Part shown: positions 52,797 through 64,000 of the stretch, one piece after another
Layout of the letters: every line of letters starts with the position of its first letter
Numbering within the stretch: the first letter of the stretch is position 1
NCBI GenBank assembly: GCA_049968255.1
Contig: JBMFRB010000001.1
Coordinates: 160,001-224,000, forward strand
DNA from: Candidatus Sumerlaeaceae bacterium
GTDB lineage: Bacteria > Sumerlaeota > Sumerlaeia > Sumerlaeales > Sumerlaeaceae
Direction: 5' to 3'
Length of the DNA: 64,000 nt
The notes under the pieces: model-generated
The model's input: the letters and a program-made list of their open reading frames with translations, nothing else
What the model was told of the DNA's origin: nothing
Database searches by the model: none
Translations under genes and position numbers: made by a program

Positions 52797-53387
52797 ATGC
52801 AGCGAAATAAGGTACATAGGCGGGGTTTCACGCTGATTGAGCTGATCGTGGTCATCGCGATCATGACATTGCTGTCTCTTGTCTCCGTGAATGCCTACAT
52901 AAGCCTGACGGCTGCGAGGCGGGCACGGGCAGGGGCTGAAATGCTTGCGAGCACGCTGGCCGCTGCACGATCGGACGCGATTTCGCAACAAGTGCCTTTT
53001 CGGGTTGTGATTCAGCGACTCGATCCGCTGACCAATACCCCGCGGCCGGCGTTTTGGATTGACGAAATAGATCCCTCGGTGCCCACGACAACCCTTTATC
53101 CTACGGCTACTCAGTTGGCTACGGGCGTGCGACGACAACAGGTGCGAGGGGTAATCTCGCCGCCAGAAGGAACAGTGGTTAGCAGTGTGATTGTGGGAAC
53201 TACGAGCACGATGACCGCACCGCCAAACCCAGCTTATGCGCTCGTGGTTTTCTCCCCGAGCGGGGCTTCAAACTACGCTTCTATCCAAGTCGAAGACACG
53301 CGAGCCCGCGACGCGAGCATCCGAACCGCCAGCGTCACGGTTTATCCGGCGACAGGAAGAGCGAGCGTACAAGGAGGCGGCTTGTGA
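52797..53387 (+). CDS. Minor (pseudo)pilin, GspH/FimT-like
   Basis: Class III signal RRG|FTLIE, ARSDAI, VVFSPSG, VYPATGR. Confidence 0.85.
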   Translation: MQRNKVHRRGFTLIELIVVIAIMTLLSLVSVNAYISLTAARRARAGAEMLASTLAAARSDAISQQVPFRVVIQRLDPLTNTPRPAFWIDEIDPSVPTTTLYPTATQLATGVRRQQVRGVISPPEGTVVSSVIVGTTSTMTAPPNPAYALVVFSPSGASNYASIQVEDTRARDASIRTASVTVYPATGRASVQGGGL

Positions 53388-53812
53388 AACCGAGCGTCGT
53401 AAGCGGCCGCGCGTTCAGCCTCGTCGAGGCTCTCATTGCACTGACCATTCTCTTGGTGGGGATTATCGCAGTGGTGCAGATTTTCCCGTTGCTCTTCGAG
53501 TCGAGCACGCGGGCAACACTTCTCACGCGTGCGGCCTTGCTTGCGCAAACCAAGGCAAACGAAATCCAACGCGATGACGATACGAGTCACACCCTAGCCA
53601 CCGCCATCGCGAACCGGACCACTCCAACACAGCCCGTCGTTTTTCCTGACGAACCAGCCCTGAGCTATTGCTTCAGCGGAAAATCGTTGCTGTATCCAGA
53701 AACGGATCCAGTGAATGGCTCCCCAAATGTGGCACGCGTCATTGTGCGTTATTCGTCAACCTACCGCCCCAGCGAGGACGTTCTCTATGAGCTGCAGTTC
53801 TACAAACCGTGA
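53384..53812 (+). CDS. Minor (pseudo)pilin, GspI/PilV-like
   Basis: GRA|FSLVEALIAL; GTGA overlap. Confidence 0.8.
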   Translation: MKPSVVSGRAFSLVEALIALTILLVGIIAVVQIFPLLFESSTRATLLTRAALLAQTKANEIQRDDDTSHTLATAIANRTTPTQPVVFPDEPALSYCFSGKSLLYPETDPVNGSPNVARVIVRYSSTYRPSEDVLYELQFYKP

Positions 53813-53837
53813 GGGCGGCCGTCTGGCTATTCGGGCG

Positions 53838-54713
53838 ATGGCAGCACCCCGCGGCTTGACGTTGGTCGAGCTGCTCGTGGCGCTCCTGTTTGTCGCTGCT
53901 GTAATGGGCGGAGCCATTGTGGCGTTTGTGGCATTGCAGCGCCATTCGAGGGAGACAAAGGCACGCCTTTCAGCCATGGCAGAGGCACGCTTTGCTCTGC
54001 AAAGCCTGTCACACGACTTGGCGCAGGCGCAACTAGGCCCGCCTTCCGCCTTCCCCCAGAACCTTTTCATCGGCGCCAATTCAGTTCTCGCTGAAGGCAA
54101 TCGCAAGGACGACGATGGCGACGACAGAATTGACGAGGAGGTTTACGACGGCATCGATGATGACGTTGACTGGAGTTCCACTGACGATCGCCATGCCCAG
54201 ATCACGCCGGCACTTTTCGAGCGTCCGCAAGGACGCGGCTTTCCGGACCTCGGAGATAGGCACGTGGACGAGGATACAAAATTTGGCCACGCCGATCTTC
54301 GGTTCCGCATTCCTGGCCAAACGACAGGTACCGTTGTGGAAGTGCATTACTACGTTGGGGACTTCGATGGGAAATCCAATGTCCTCATTCGCGAAGAGGT
54401 CACGAGCGCAGGGGTTGAAGCAGGGCCCATCGCGTTTGACGTCCTTTCTTTCACCGCGCTGTTCTGGGACGCAAACCCGCCGCCGGGACCTCTGCGCAAG
54501 TGGGTCACGGCGTGGGATTCGACACAGATCAACCCAGCGACCGAAGTGCCACTGCCGGTAAGTGTGGCACTGGAAGTGACTGTTTACGCGGGCACTCGAC
54601 CGTACCAATCGCTGAAGCCCACCGAGCCGATTGAGACCGTCCGCCTGACCACCGTGATCAACGTGGAAGCCGCCTTATGGCACCCGAATTATCAGCGCAA
54701 CACACTCCCCTAG
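53838..54713 (+). CDS. Minor (pseudo)pilin, GspJ/PilW-like, with Asp-rich insert
   Basis: PRG|LTLVELLVAL, ARFALQSLSHDL, VHYYV...LIRE, C-terminal LPVSVALEV. Confidence 0.8.
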   Translation: MAAPRGLTLVELLVALLFVAAVMGGAIVAFVALQRHSRETKARLSAMAEARFALQSLSHDLAQAQLGPPSAFPQNLFIGANSVLAEGNRKDDDGDDRIDEEVYDGIDDDVDWSSTDDRHAQITPALFERPQGRGFPDLGDRHVDEDTKFGHADLRFRIPGQTTGTVVEVHYYVGDFDGKSNVLIREEVTSAGVEAGPIAFDVLSFTALFWDANPPPGPLRKWVTAWDSTQINPATEVPLPVSVALEVTVYAGTRPYQSLKPTEPIETVRLTTVINVEAALWHPNYQRNTLP

Positions 54714-55821: not shown

Positions 55822-57339
55822 CTATGGTTTGGGCACGAGTATGAAAAAGGTTGGTTCGCCTTCCGATGCGAACATTTCAGGAAACTCGCGCTCCAGCCTG
55901 TAGTGTTTGTCGATGGCTTCGAGCACCCGTATCGGCCAGCGTGCTCCTGCCTGGTTGGTGATTTGGACGGCGCCAAATTCGCGCGCCTCAACTTGCTTAG
56001 CCAGCTTGTCGGCTGGGCGCACACCAGCGACGTCCAGGATGCGATCGATGTAAGGCACCGCGGGAGGGTCCGACCCTGCGCGGAGACCAAACCCGATGAA
56101 TTCGGTGAGGAGGGGTTTGGACGATTGAGCCAGCAGTTGCGCCACTTCTTGAGCGCGGCGAAATTGGTCCGGTGTGGGATAGCGGGGAGGAATGAGCACC
56201 TCGAACACCAGAATCCCTATCGCGAGAGCTAAGAGAGCAGCACTTCGCCGGAAAGTTGGCGTGGTTGTCAGTGATCCTAGGCCAAACGCTGCGAGGCCGC
56301 ATAGCGCCCACGTGACATCAAAAAAATAATTTACGTCTGCGCCATCCTGGGCTGCAAGCAAGATCAATGGAAAGCTTGCGAGAGTCGCCCACAGAAAAAG
56401 CTGACCAACACGATCACGCCTTGCTGCTCGCATCCCCAGTATAGAAAGGACAAGAAGAACAACGTTAGCGAAGAGAAAGCCAACCAGCCAAGGCCAGAGG
56501 AAGGCCAAGCTTAGTTGGCGGCGAACATCCCAGAACACATTGGCGAAGAAATGGCGTCCCAGGATTGCAGCGACAATAAGATAACAACATAACGTCGCAA
56601 AAAGCCATGCGAAAATAAAACTGAGGGAACGCAAACGCCTTTGCCTCCACCAGAACGCTGATAGGGCGAGGGCTGACGTGAACATCGTTTGTTTGGTGCT
56701 CATCGCCATAGCCGATAGTAGGGCTGCTGCCGCGACTTTGCCAACAACAGTGGGCAAGCTTACAGCCGCTAAAAGACTGATGCTCTCGAGCATGCGCCCA
56801 AGAGAATCGACGCGTCCCATGGCTGCAAAGGTGCGGATGAAGGGATTAGTGAGCCAGAGGAGGGCTGCGGCCATCGCCCAAGGCCAAGACAGCTGAGTCC
56901 GGCGCAATAAGGCCACTAGGCATGCTGCAGAAAGAAGATGCGACAGTTGTGAGAGAAGGCGGGGCCACAAAAAATTGAGCGTGGGCCACAGACTCACGAG
57001 CCAAGCGAAAAGCGGAGGATATGGCGAAATCCAAACACCTTGCGCCGCGGGCGCATAGATTGTCTCTCCTCGCGCAAGACGAATGGCATCGAATAGCACC
57101 CCGCCTTCGCCAAAATTGGCTTCGTAGGGATAGCGCACGATCATGAAATTTGCGTAGACGGTGCGGACTGTTGCAAAAACGAGAACCGCAAGAAAGCACC
57201 ATGCGGAAAAGCGAGGCACCCAAAGCGCAGACTCAGAAGTCGAGGGCTTGTCCTCAAGTTGGAGATTTTTGCTGGATAGGGGTTTAGACTTGGCCGGCCT
57301 TTGCGATGAATAACGCGACTTTTTCCGCGCGCTTCCCAT
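55822..57339 (-). CDS. GT-C (ArnT/PMT-like) membrane glycosyltransferase
   Basis: YPYEANFGEG after TM1, YPPLF, GRVD, TKQT, NYF; about 11 TMs. Confidence 0.7.
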   Translation of the reverse strand: MGSARKKSRYSSQRPAKSKPLSSKNLQLEDKPSTSESALWVPRFSAWCFLAVLVFATVRTVYANFMIVRYPYEANFGEGGVLFDAIRLARGETIYAPAAQGVWISPYPPLFAWLVSLWPTLNFLWPRLLSQLSHLLSAACLVALLRRTQLSWPWAMAAALLWLTNPFIRTFAAMGRVDSLGRMLESISLLAAVSLPTVVGKVAAAALLSAMAMSTKQTMFTSALALSAFWWRQRRLRSLSFIFAWLFATLCCYLIVAAILGRHFFANVFWDVRRQLSLAFLWPWLVGFLFANVVLLVLSILGMRAARRDRVGQLFLWATLASFPLILLAAQDGADVNYFFDVTWALCGLAAFGLGSLTTTPTFRRSAALLALAIGILVFEVLIPPRYPTPDQFRRAQEVAQLLAQSSKPLLTEFIGFGLRAGSDPPAVPYIDRILDVAGVRPADKLAKQVEAREFGAVQITNQAGARWPIRVLEAIDKHYRLEREFPEMFASEGEPTFFILVPKP

Positions 57340-60892: not shown

Positions 60893-61876
60893 ATGGAGCA
60901 AACTCAACAGCCATTTCGCGGCAGAATCGCGGTCATTGGCGCGGGCGCGCTCGGCATCTTTTATGGCGCGAAGCTTTTTCGCGTCGGCTTTGATGTGCAT
61001 TTTTACGTGCGAACTGGCTATGAAATTGTTCGAGACAATGGCTATCGTATCCGATCTTGTGACGGCGATTTTGAGATCCATCCTCCCGTATACGACAACC
61101 CAGCAAAGATCGGCGTGTGCGACCTTGTTTTGGTTGGGCTGAAGAGTTTCGCAAACGAACATCTAGCCTGGTTGCTTGGGCCGCTGTGCACAGCTCGGAC
61201 GATTGTGCTCACACTCCAGAATGGCCTTGGCAACGAAGAGGCCATTGCTGCCGCACTCACTGCAACAGGTGTGTGCCCGGATGTTGCGACCGCTAGGCAG
61301 CAAATCATTGGAGGCACGGCCTTTCTTTGTTCAAACAGAGTAGCGACCAACGAGATTCATCACACAGCGCATGGCTTTGTCCGCCTTGCTGAATTTAGTG
61401 GTCCGCCACGTGCGCGAACCCATGCCGTCGCCGCAATGTTTTGCGCGAGCGGGATTGACTGCCAGGTGCGTGAGTCGCTCTCGGGCATCCGATGGGAAAA
61501 ACTCGTATGGAACATCCCGTTCAATGGTCTTGGCGTGGCAGCTCACCACGCAGACACTGCGGCGATTCTTGGGGACGACGAACTTCGCCACGTGGCCGTT
61601 GCACTTATGCAGGAAGTGGTTGCTGCTGCAAGAGCTGACAACGTGGAGATCGATCCAAGCCTTGCAGCGGACCTTCTGGCCAAAACCGAAAGCATGGGCG
61701 CTTACAGAAGCTCGATGCAGATCGATTACGAAGAGGGGCGGCAGCTCGAAGTGGAGGCAATTTTGGGCGAACCAGTACGGCGCGCCAGGCGAGCTGGCAT
61801 TGCTGTCCCGAAGATGGAAATGCTTTACGCCATTGTGCGTCGGATGGATGCCCAGCGCAGACGTCATCTCTCATAA
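60893..61876 (+). CDS. panE: 2-dehydropantoate 2-reductase family protein
   Basis: GAGALG, LQNGLGNE, WEKLVWNIPFN, SSMQID, LEVEAI. Confidence 0.88.
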   Translation: MEQTQQPFRGRIAVIGAGALGIFYGAKLFRVGFDVHFYVRTGYEIVRDNGYRIRSCDGDFEIHPPVYDNPAKIGVCDLVLVGLKSFANEHLAWLLGPLCTARTIVLTLQNGLGNEEAIAAALTATGVCPDVATARQQIIGGTAFLCSNRVATNEIHHTAHGFVRLAEFSGPPRARTHAVAAMFCASGIDCQVRESLSGIRWEKLVWNIPFNGLGVAAHHADTAAILGDDELRHVAVALMQEVVAAARADNVEIDPSLAADLLAKTESMGAYRSSMQIDYEEGRQLEVEAILGEPVRRARRAGIAVPKMEMLYAIVRRMDAQRRRHLS

Positions 61877-62034: not shown

Positions 62035-62084
62035 AAAAAAAATAAGAAAAAGCATCTCCGTACCGTAAGAGCACGGAGATGCTT
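62035..62084 (-). terminator. Intrinsic terminator of the riboswitch-controlled gene
   Basis: 12-bp stem AAGCATCTCCGT/ACGGAGATGCTT (62050-62084) followed by a long T-rich tract on the minus strand. Confidence 0.85.
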
Positions 62085-62092
62085 GAAATGAC

Positions 62093-63199
62093 CTAGTATA
62101 GGGCCCATTCATCAACCGCAGCGGGCGGAGTTGTCGGCTCGAGCCAGAGCAAATTTGTGGCGGCATTCCAGGAAGCGGTCCATCCGCCGACGTACAGACG
62201 TGCCCGCGGAGGCGCGGCGTTAGCTGCAAAGGTTCGAGTTGGTTCATCGAAGCGGCAACAGGAGAGATACGATGCATTGGTCGTCGCAAAAGTGGTCGGC
62301 GTTGCCGTGCCACTCAGTAGATTTGCCGGCAGGGCAAATTTGCGGATACTACCCGAGGATTCAGTGAAATACACATCATTTTCCGCCGACACACTGAGAT
62401 CGCTGAGGCCAGCTGCAAGTGAAGATTGGTCGACGAGAATGTGGCTTTCCCCCGGCTCAATCATCTCGTTCGAGTTCAAATTAACGAGCGCATAGATGCG
62501 TCCGGAAGAAGTGAAAGTGAAGAAATCGAAGAGACTTTCGCCCATGATGACATGACCTGCCGTGTCGAAAGCCATACCCCCATTGAATTGAAATCCCGAG
62601 AAGAATGCGCCGCCGCTGGGACGATAGGCAGGAGCACTCAAGGGATTCTCGACCACCAGCAACTCCGAACTGGTCTGGCCGTCGGCGGTTTGGACGACTA
62701 ACGATCCCGCCGGAATTGCTGCCGCGTTGCTGGGCGGAGCGATAACCACCTGAGCTCCGGTGAAGTCCCCCCCGTCCGCAAGGATTGGCGCAATGAGCTG
62801 TGTGACTTCGCCAGGATCGAGGAAATCGCCATCGGCGTTGGCATCCTGTGCCCGAAGAATAGTGTCGGACCCTGCGTTTTCAGTGATCGCAAGATCACCG
62901 TTAGCAAAAACGGCAATGCCGCCAATGGAGCTAAAACCTGTGGCAACAGTAGTGGTCGTTTGAGCAACTGTGTCGAGCAGCACAATTTGCTCGTTTCCAT
63001 AGGACCCCACAGCCACATAGAGTTTTGTTGGGTCTGACGGTGAGGCAGCGAGTGCACCGGCAAAGGGGGCACCGACCTCGATCGAACCGCTTGTGTAACC
63101 AGCCGGAACGCTCGAGAAGTTGATCTGGTCGGCCGCGCAAAGACTAACCAGGGAAAATGTAACGCCAGCTATCGCTGGCTTGAGCAGTTTGCTCCACAT
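62093..63199 (-). CDS. Secreted beta-propeller-like protein with EF-hand-like loops and C-terminal 'AAVDEWALY' tail
   Basis: Signal peptide MWSKLLKPAIAGVTFSLVSLCAA; blade-like repeats (GGIAVFANGDLAITE, GGMAFDTAGHVIMGE, SDLSVSAENDVYFTE). The ORF-track start at 63421 lies in the riboswitch leader. Confidence 0.8.
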   Translation of the reverse strand: MWSKLLKPAIAGVTFSLVSLCAADQINFSSVPAGYTSGSIEVGAPFAGALAASPSDPTKLYVAVGSYGNEQIVLLDTVAQTTTTVATGFSSIGGIAVFANGDLAITENAGSDTILRAQDANADGDFLDPGEVTQLIAPILADGGDFTGAQVVIAPPSNAAAIPAGSLVVQTADGQTSSELLVVENPLSAPAYRPSGGAFFSGFQFNGGMAFDTAGHVIMGESLFDFFTFTSSGRIYALVNLNSNEMIEPGESHILVDQSSLAAGLSDLSVSAENDVYFTESSGSIRKFALPANLLSGTATPTTFATTNASYLSCCRFDEPTRTFAANAAPPRARLYVGGWTASWNAATNLLWLEPTTPPAAVDEWALY

Positions 63200-63423
63200 A
63201 GCAATAACCCTTCCGTTTGAGATGTTTTTGGACCTGACACCGAGGTCCGATGTGTTGTGGGAGAGATTTCCCAATGCGGAGGACGCTGGACTAAGGCATG
63301 TGACGCTCTCAATCCTGCCAGTGAGACGCCTCGTTCGTCCGCAGCCGAACGAAGCCGCAAAGATGCATGTTGCAACACCTCCTTTCCCTTGCGACCGAAG
63401 GGTGGATCGCTTTTTTCTCATGG

Positions 63424-63596
63424 AGCAGGTCTTCTGACTCGCGGATCGACCTACTTTCCCACGCCTTCCCGGCCGAACATTCGTGCGATATTCATGACCA
63501 GTGGCTTGAGTGTGGGATTTCGTCCCCGCTCACAGCGGCGGGCCCGTACCGGATTTTCACCGGTTTCCCTCGCGGCCGAGCGATCTTACTGCTCCG
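63424..63596 (-). ncRNA. Cobalamin (B12) riboswitch
   Basis: Minus strand AGGGAAACCGGTGAAAATCCGGTACGGGCCCGCCGCTGTGA...GCCACTG...GGGAAGG...GAGTCAGAAGACCTGC, all canonical B12-element boxes. Confidence 0.95.
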
Positions 63597-63788
63597 CCGT
63601 CGCTCTTGCGCAGCGGATTGCGCAAAAGCTGCTCTCCATGATTCGCGCATAGCATGTGGGGCAGCTTCTGTAGCAGGCAAGTGTTTTTTCGCTTCCACCG
63701 GATCGACTGGACAATGTGAGTTTGGTATGTTTGAGTGAGCACGAACAGCCAAAAAAAACGGCAGCGGCTTTTGACGCGGGGAGAAATC

Positions 63789-64000
63789 ATGATTAAATTA
63801 GACTATCATCGCACGCCGAATTTTGAACGCCTTCGAAAAGTGCTCTTTTGCCAGGGCGAGCCCGATATGGTTCCCTTTATTGAGCTCGGAATTCATCCCA
63901 TGTTTAAGTCCAAGTTGCTTGGACGTCCGTGCACAACAGTCGCGGACGAGGTTGAATTCGCGAAGATAGCAGGTTACGATTATATCAAGTTACAGCCGAT
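63789..64000 (+). CDS. Probable uroporphyrinogen decarboxylase / MtaA-CmuA family protein (3' partial, not in the ORF track)
   Basis: ATG 63789 after GGGGAG; MIKLDYHRTPNFERLRKVLFCQGEPDMVPFIELGIH...AGYDYI, the typical 'ER...PDxVP' URO-D-family N-terminus; open to the window end. Confidence 0.65.
   Translation, partial: MIKLDYHRTPNFERLRKVLFCQGEPDMVPFIELGIHPMFKSKLLGRPCTTVADEVEFAKIAGYDYIKLQP

Follow-up and report, generated by a model that had tools for sequence, protein, structure and literature searches.

A gene for a predicted exported six-bladed beta-propeller, designated P0001, stands directly behind a cobalamin riboswitch in the genome of a Candidatus Sumerlaeaceae bacterium (phylum Sumerlaeota; GenBank assembly GCA_049968255.1), and the analysis described here points to a role of this protein in the acquisition of cobamides. 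The gene is located in a stretch of 64,000 nucleotides (contig JBMFRB010000001.1, positions 160,001 to 224,000 of the forward strand), which was analyzed as a whole and is referred to as the window; it is part of a genome of 3.12 Mb that is 95.75% complete and is designated G000. According to the favored reading, to which a probability of roughly 60% is assigned, P0001 is a component of extracellular cobamide acquisition that is repressed by vitamin B12 (B12) and resembles BtuG of Bacteroides in its working while standing outside the BtuG family. The acquisition role is well supported at the sequence level, since the linkage to the riboswitch is conserved and the riboswitch operons are shared with BtuH-like and pilin-like genes. 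Moreover, we infer a location outside the cell, direct binding of cobamides, and an order in which these are handed over.

What is understood of accessory B12 capture outside the cell comes mainly from gut Bacteroides, in which all such systems feed the TonB-dependent BtuB. Sumerlaeota represent a B12-auxotrophic phylum of diderms that keeps B12 riboswitches on an exported propeller, while TonB-dependent receptors are mostly absent. If the favored reading is true, P0001 would be the third case of a propeller family that has come to B12 capture independently, and it would raise the question how B12 crosses the outer membrane without BtuB. Furthermore, about 60 hypothetical proteins would gain a name, as would a large family of 2669 matches annotated in part as 'cell surface protein', and better predictions of vitamin dependence would become possible for hot-spring and sediment communities.

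Riboswitch linkage and distribution of the propeller family

An Rfam scan of the window gave a single match, to the cobalamin riboswitch family RF00174, with a score of 91.8 bits (gathering score 31.5, E value 1.8e-21) and full coverage of the 189 model positions. An earlier reading of this DNA, made from its letters alone and hereafter called the sequence-only reading, had proposed a canonical cobalamin riboswitch at this site, which the Rfam match confirms; the aptamer extends 25 nucleotides past the end that had been assigned to it. The same reading had expected that homologs of the propeller gene would be associated with B12 elements, and this association was recovered in three sets of loci, which overlap and consist of relatives that are not independent. 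In species-representative genomes, 15 loci carry relatives of P0001 at 39-79% identity, and RF00174 is found directly upstream on the same strand at all 15, with scores of 61-96 bits. Likewise, RF00174 directly precedes the gene at seven of eight metagenome loci, the eighth contig starting 16 bases before the match and holding no upstream DNA. In a phylum set of 75 genomes, searched for RF00174 with Infernal's stricter filters, the riboswitch was detected in 71 genomes and a propeller match in 36, including 24 of the 43 high-quality genomes. When the propeller and RF00174 tables were cross-tabulated by hand, 33 of the 36 propeller-bearing genomes had the riboswitch 100-710 nucleotides upstream of the gene, on its contig and strand. 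In the other three, the gene is fragmentary and its contig short (G056), the match lies at base 2 of the contig (G002), or the match is weak (G050, E value 1.7e-9). The linkage persists down to matches with an E value of 1e-17, and in 17 genomes the riboswitch of the propeller is the sole RF00174 match.

A word-indexed search yielded 58 relatives of 345-441 amino acids, encoded in metagenome-assembled genomes of the Sumerlaeota/BRC1 type and all unnamed or annotated as 'hypothetical'. Separately, a DNA sequencing run of a hot-spring metagenome contained 0.40 of the sampled words. An exhaustive search among 1.84 billion representatives returned 73 matches at an E value of at most 0.001, including 31 at an E value of at most 1e-10. 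The propeller family is nearly confined to Sumerlaeota. Besides the common form, longer forms of about 690-860 amino acids were encountered (L009 5959-8068, L011 1731-3797, G008:C575, G045:C36, and G002:C388), some with a C-terminal extension of no known kind and some with tandem propeller halves; no Pfam match was obtained in six long representatives (502-747 amino acids). At two loci, a heme oxygenase gene is located immediately upstream of the riboswitch-propeller unit (L005 4842-5474 and L012 4866-5498, plus strand), and a pilin-like gene lies within approximately 4 kb upstream in both.

Operon partners under B12 riboswitches

G000 contains only two B12 riboswitches. The second one precedes the gene of P0131, a predicted exported protein of 272 amino acids, which is followed by a pilin-like gene (N_methyl/GspG-like, L019 10981-11652, minus strand). 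P0131 matched no Pfam family, and its own family (BtuH-like, designated A2) has 2669 matches, some of which are named 'cell surface protein'. Its structural model (predicted local distance difference test score, pLDDT, of 87.8) aligns with the B12-binding domain of BtuH2 (7biz) at a Z score of 13.1 (root-mean-square deviation, rmsd, 3.3; 160 aligned residues; 19% identity) and with the B12-binding domain of BtuG1 (8blw) at a Z score of 13.1, the next best matches being carbohydrate-binding modules of family CBM32 with a Z score of 9.3. At the profile level, no solved structure matched the sequence of P0131, and the likeness of this protein to BtuH is therefore fold-level evidence. A second exported family of no known kind, designated c4, comprises proteins of 436-526 amino acids with weak matches to BNR_4 and PDIAV, and is encoded in 40 of the 75 phylum genomes, compared with 36 for the six-bladed propeller.

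Both families share B12 operons with the propeller. The order riboswitch, propeller gene, BtuH-like gene was found in 13 genomes, and the order riboswitch, propeller gene, c4 gene in seven. In the host's taxonomic family, the propeller and BtuH-like genes are placed under separate riboswitches in all 11 genomes having the BtuH-like gene. Gene order was confirmed at six operon loci, open reading frame (ORF) by ORF, with a pilin-like gene in third position at four of them. One pilin-like orthogroup stands last in B12 operons (the third genes of L069, L070, L072, and L074), and it is also found in G000, with a score of 326 bits versus at most 108 bits for at least 11 paralogs. A BtuH-like gene is present in L025 as well.

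Among 20 further riboswitch loci that were sampled, four (L029, L030, L034, and L041), all from genomes without the six-bladed family, have a PQQ_2-type (BamB-like) propeller gene first and a c4 gene second. At L035 (G046:C13), the riboswitch is followed by c4, pilin-like, BtuF-like, and ATP-binding cassette (ABC) ATPase genes, an order by which the exoproteins become linked to an importer of the BtuFCD type. Some of the sampled loci have classical targets, namely NrdD together with its activase and, in the CbiC-positive genus, cob genes. In this genus, the only CbiC-positive one (G069:C1; L031 and L032), riboswitches are located on genes for a CobQ/CobD-type fusion, CobT, a ThiC-family radical S-adenosylmethionine enzyme, and a histidine phosphatase.

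B12 economy of the host

G000 holds 11 matches to B12-binding domains, one of them in a frame of 1249 amino acids, which is the size of a methionine synthase, and neither CbiC nor CobS was found in this genome. Because B12-dependent enzymes are present while CbiC and CobS are absent, the host must import finished cobamides; within the phylum set, CbiC is present in two of the 75 genomes. The Plug domain had no match in G000, which thus has no TonB-dependent receptor, and it was detected in 12 of the 75 phylum genomes. Omp85/BamA is present in G000. In addition, PF16819, the BtuG family, had no match in the whole of G000, with a positive control in B. thetaiotaomicron. The host is thus a diderm that imports finished cobamides without the usual outer-membrane route. 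A single BtuF/ABC/FecCD set is encoded approximately 58 kb beyond the end of the window, without a riboswitch. The sequence-only reading had noted that btuB, btuFCD, and cob genes are missing near the propeller gene, and indeed none was found among the nine neighboring ORFs or the 37 large ORFs of positions 1-53 kb of the window, the BtuFCD-like set of the genome being the distant one.

Structure and conserved features of P0001

The propeller-like blades anticipated by the sequence-only reading were recovered as a confident AlphaFold model, which was obtained with 57 homologs and has six blades (pLDDT 92.7; predicted template modeling score, pTM, 0.90). VIA structural searches covered 48,161 representative chains and, separately, the top 1000 of Foldseek. 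The best structural matches are six-bladed propellers with Z scores of 24-26 and an rmsd of 2.5-3.1 over 245-280 residues, and include the pyrroloquinoline quinone (PQQ) sugar dehydrogenases 3a9g and 2ism (Z 26), the lactonases 3dr2, 8djf, and Drp35 (Z 25), and, also at Z 24-26, NHL domains (1rwi) and 2dg0. The designed protein Pizza6 aligns at Z 25 with an rmsd of 2.5 over 247-248 of 251 residues. Enzymes, lectins, NHL domains, and designed proteins all give much the same Z score, and therefore only the fold is shared. ESM Atlas returned generic SGL/NHL clusters only (0.90-0.91). At an E value of up to 1, P0001 had no Pfam match, including the SGL, NHL, and PQQ families (PF08450, PF01436); its sole NCBIfam match, ScyE_fam, is sub-threshold (17.7 bits versus a cut-off of 80), and a profile search against the PDB gave nothing below an E value of 0.18.

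All aligned homologs of P0001 have hydrophobic N-termini, and the model places a helix of low pLDDT at residues 2-19. A lipobox is absent, as Cys21 is preceded by S-L and the cysteine is not conserved among the 57 homologs. The earlier description of a signal peptide of a non-lipoprotein therefore holds, the N-terminus being Sec-like as judged by eye. The two EF-hand-like loops that had been pointed out proved to be conserved features of the family in the 57-sequence alignment. In motif 1, D119 and E131 are found in all 57 sequences, D123 in 55, and G124 in 53; in motif 2, I247 and E251 are found in all 57, N242 in 55, N240 in 54, and G250 in 53. Both Ca-loop-like motifs sit between the third and fourth strands of a blade in the model, and the two loops are predicted from their residues to bind calcium. 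Mature P0001 is acidic, with 34 D/E versus 10 K/R and an isoelectric point of 4.05, which is also the family median. Moreover, invariant or near-invariant polar residues occur at approximately one per blade (E107/N108, Q170/D173, N206, D267, and N349). A complex predicted between residues 24-368 of the propeller and residues 38-272 of the BtuH-like protein scored 0.04 versus a mark of 0.32, without controls, and speaks neither for nor against binding.

A C-terminal tail shared with exoproteins

P0001 ends in a conserved tail of the form ..[VAI]-x-[DE]-W-x-[LIVMF]-[YF]-[EDQ]?, and similar tails are found on P0131, the c4 proteins, and the PQQ_2-type propellers. The motif W-x-[LIVMF]-[YF]-[EDQ]? 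terminates 21 G000 ORFs of at least 100 amino acids, where about three are expected, and an extended motif terminates 18 ORFs versus 0.12 in shuffles and none at internal offsets. The tail is carried by a GH18 chitinase, a GH57-CBM53 enzyme, an S8 subtilase, a polysaccharide deacetylase, and both riboswitch-controlled proteins; as the chitinase, the subtilase, and the GH57 enzyme are among the bearers, the tail marks exoproteins. It is a candidate for a phylum-specific sorting signal of exoproteins that have no transmembrane segment, and its presence on P0001 argues for export of the propeller beyond the periplasm. No description of the tail was found in the literature, in which no search was aimed at it.

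Leader and expression platform

On the minus strand between the aptamer and the start codon, no terminator-like site was seen. Immediately after the aptamer on its 3' side, the segment AGCGAU..ACCCUUC can base-pair with the ribosome-binding site (RBS) and start region GAAGGGU..AUUGCU-AUG (minimum free energy fold, z -2.64), and the pairing blocks of the leader are identical in the closest relative (L001). Translational control of the propeller gene by sequestration of the RBS is likely, because a terminator before the start is missing and the pairing of the RBS and start is kept in identical blocks in L001. The block with the Shine-Dalgarno-like (SD-like) GGAAAGGAGGUG at window positions 63340-63400 (minus strand) is also identical in L001, and this element may be an RBS decoy in the expression platform. 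An upstream ORF of 19 codons behind GGAAAGGAGGUG (ATG at 63367) was considered as a conserved peptide and rejected, the ATG not being kept in L001.

Locus layout and neighboring genes

The coordinates of the features are collected in Table 1. The start codon of P0001 was placed at the ATG at 63199, because this position fits the homologs. A longer ORF of 442 amino acids (62093-63421, ATG at 63421) was rejected as the gene, since it overlaps the aptamer and the homologs begin at its M75. The next gene, a PanE-like gene at 60893-61876 on the plus strand, converges on the terminator-like hairpin, and the propeller unit is therefore monocistronic, in agreement with the single gene and strong terminator of the sequence-only reading.

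Table 1. Features of the riboswitch-propeller locus and of the second riboswitch locus (window positions unless indicated otherwise).
Feature	Position	Strand	Remarks
Cobalamin riboswitch aptamer (RF00174)	63407..63621	(-)	B12-box GCCACUGG; full length, model positions 1-189 of 189
Leader and expression platform	63200..63406	(-)	207 nucleotides; two conserved hairpins and SD-like GGAAAGGAGGUG
Coding sequence of P0001, predicted exported six-bladed beta-propeller	62093..63199	(-)	368 amino acids plus stop; start fitted to homologs
Signal-peptide-like N-terminus, residues 1-23	63131..63199	(-)	MWSKLLKPAIAGVTFSLVSLCAA followed by DQ, read by eye; not a lipoprotein signal
Ca-loop-like motif 1, D119-x-N-x-D-G-D-F-L-D-x-G-E131	62807..62845	(-)	Flanking strands 113-117 and 132-136
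Ca-loop-like motif 2, N240-x-N-x-[DN]-x-x-I-[DE]-x-G-E251	62447..62482	(-)	Flanking strands 230-238 and 252-256
C-terminal tail AAVDEWALY	62096..62122	(-)	W365 in 56/57 and Y/F368 in 55/57 homologs
Intrinsic-terminator-like hairpin	62050..62084	(-)	15-pair stem (7 GC pairs, loop 5), then T-run, directly after the stop codon
Divergent URO-D-family gene	63735..64000, runs past the window end to G000:C1:224857	(+)	373 amino acids; PF01208, E value 7.9e-21
Second riboswitch locus	G000:C4:188980-190682 = L019 10981-12683	(-)	P0131 (272 amino acids, predicted exported), then pilin-like gene

The divergent neighbor of the URO-D family had been suggested to be an MtaA-like, corrinoid-related gene. Its weak matches to MtaA and CmuA fall far short of the curated cut-offs, and the gene is not located behind the riboswitch. 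Among the 15 loci compared, it adjoins the propeller gene only in the closest relative (L001) and is 4 kb away in L002. The suggestion was not borne out, and the gene was rejected as a functional partner because its adjacency is confined to the nearest relatives. On the opposite strand after the URO-D gene, a molybdopterin subunit of the aldehyde-oxidase/xanthine-dehydrogenase type is encoded. Elsewhere in the window, an ORF of 505 amino acids without a Pfam match (55822-57339, minus strand) is flanked by a gene of the metallo-beta-lactamase fold and by one for a DAHP synthase, and matches to the prepilin N-methylation motif were found in the ORFs at 52797-53387 and 53715-54713 (both plus strand), the second match being weak (E value 0.029).

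Proposed mechanism and alternative explanations

When intracellular cobamide is plentiful, it would bind the riboswitch and expression of the propeller would fall, likely through occlusion of the RBS. Under B12 scarcity, the propeller would be made and exported through the Sec pathway by means of its N-terminal signal, and would then probably be transferred across or onto the outer membrane by a recognizer of the C-terminal ..V-x-[DE]-W-x-L-Y tail. The most likely task of the propeller outside the cell, where its two Ca-loop-like motifs presumably stiffen it, is to bind cobamides on one of its faces or to dock a partner that carries them. The BtuH-like and pilin-like proteins that are controlled by the second riboswitch would receive the cobamides next, and the relay would end at the single BtuFCD-like importer of the ABC type. 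A more far-reaching model, which we put forward as tentative and consider rather doubtful, envisages a TonB-independent B12 route across the outer membrane, with the propeller as its outermost part. This route might consist of a tail-tagged propeller (six-bladed or PQQ_2-type) with a BtuH-like or c4 binder, a pilin-like fibre that draws cobamides inward, by analogy with competence pseudopili in DNA uptake, and a BtuFCD-type importer.

The riboswitch control would fit equally well with an exported enzyme, i.e., a propeller hydrolase, lactonase, or quinoprotein-like oxidoreductase that acts on extracellular corrinoid-related substrates, for example by freeing cobamides from protein carriers or debris, or by trimming analogs prior to uptake, and that is no passive binder. 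The best fold matches of P0001 are enzymes (PQQ sugar dehydrogenases and lactonases), and the invariant or near-invariant polar residues of the blades and the Ca-loop-like motifs likewise speak for such a protein. Nevertheless, we consider this explanation unlikely, as SGL, NHL, and PQQ matches in Pfam are missing up to an E value of 1, no profile match to a solved enzyme was obtained, and the Z scores do not discriminate enzymes from lectins, NHL domains, or designed proteins. Moreover, the propeller has a constant partner in its operons, a BtuH-like binding protein, and the surface capture proteins of Bacteroides are described as binders (PMC13616437). A similarly low probability is given to the propeller being a non-binding adaptor or structural part, on which the BtuH-like or c4 binder, or else the pilin-like fibre, would be docked at the surface. 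In operons, the propeller is invariably accompanied by a candidate binder, A2 (BtuH-like) or c4 being present in 35 of the 36 propeller-bearing genomes; this agrees with such a role, and propellers are common interaction platforms. An obligate structural partner would, however, need no transcription unit and riboswitch of its own, as the propeller has in the host genome and family, and the conserved polar residues and overall charge suggest a ligand site. A role other than the uptake of ready-made cobamides is very improbable. Capture of cobalt or another metal would suit an acidic protein with two Ca-loop-like motifs, but CbiC is missing in the host and in 73 of the 75 phylum genomes, so that cobalt for corrin synthesis is not needed; a B12-independent substitute function would require an extracellular protein to replace a cytoplasmic B12-dependent enzyme, which it cannot do. 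For both of these roles, the partners provide a further argument to the contrary, being BtuH-like and, via c4, linked to BtuF and an ABC ATPase.

Several observations weigh against the favored reading of P0001 as a BtuG-like acquisition component. The fold is generic, with all top matches at Z 24-26. In the comparison with BtuG that the sequence-only reading had envisaged, neither BtuG nor BtuK is among the 50 matches listed by Foldseek or among the 50 of either VIA list, a result that does not exclude similarity. The conserved polar residues (TEN 106-108, QTAD 170-173, N206, D267, and N349) could equally form a catalytic metal site. In addition, sampled genomes without the six-bladed family place a PQQ_2-type propeller in the same operon slot, and second copies of the propeller gene in G011:C21 (with an in-frame TGA) and G010:C241 have no riboswitch. 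The family is absent from 39 of the 75 phylum genomes, almost all of which are also without CbiC, and it is therefore dispensable or replaceable. Finally, at the given completeness of G000, absences from this genome are not proof.

Comparison with known systems

No description of the P0001 family or of B12 uptake in Sumerlaeota was found in the literature; in the main text of a study of Sumerlaeota genomics (PMC8092238), the terms B12, cobalamin, vitamin, outer membrane, TonB, and pili do not occur. Several B12 capture proteins have been described for Bacteroides. BtuG is described as a seven-bladed lipoprotein that caps BtuB, with structures 3DSM and 8BMZ (PMC6143338, PMC13616437), and is reported to be restricted to Bacteroidetes (PMC6143338); for BtuG2, a negatively charged binding face is described as attracting B12 (PMC13616437). 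A second B12-binding propeller, BtuK1, is reported to combine a PKD domain with seven blades and to bind cyanocobalamin (PMC13616437). In BtuH, a globular domain at the C-terminus is reported to bind B12 (PMC8941943), and DUF4465/BtuJ domains are presented as jellyroll binders in eight clades (PMC13398666). BtuG, BtuH, BtuJ, and BtuK1 are regarded as binders rather than enzymes (PMC13616437).

The overall six-bladed fold of P0001 is shared with the propellers of the SMP-30/gluconolactonase/LRE, NHL, and soluble PQQ-dehydrogenase types (3dr2, 2dg0, 3a9g, and 1rwi). Unlike those enzymes, the P0001 family has riboswitch control, the C-terminal tail, and two inserted Ca-loop-like motifs. The likeness to BtuH2 (7BIZ) belongs to the partner P0131, which is not a lipoprotein, and not to the propeller. 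BtuK1 resembles P0001 as a propeller in a B12 context and binds B12 on one face, but it differs in blade number and is a lipoprotein with a PKD domain from an unrelated family. After BtuG, BtuK1 is an independent second case, which shows that B12 capture has drawn on propellers more than once.

The closest parallel in working is BtuG. Like BtuG, P0001 is an acidic propeller under B12-riboswitch control in a B12-auxotrophic host, is predicted to be exported to the cell exterior, and has a gene that is paired with a BtuH-type protein, while BtuG1 itself is fused to a BtuH domain. In contrast to BtuG (PF16819/DUF5074), it has six blades instead of seven, no PF16819 match or sequence relation, no lipobox or Bacteroidetes export signal, and no BtuB to cap, given that Plug is absent from the host and such a gene is missing in the window. 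Moreover, cobamide binding has been demonstrated for BtuG, whereas P0001 is a putative binder only. The sequence-only proposal of a functional analog of BtuG is thus retained for the acquisition role, which is supported by the riboswitch linkage and the operon partners, and abandoned for kinship with BtuG. Of the defining features of BtuG that could be examined, P0001 shares only riboswitch control, and it is to be considered an analog of BtuG rather than a member of its family.

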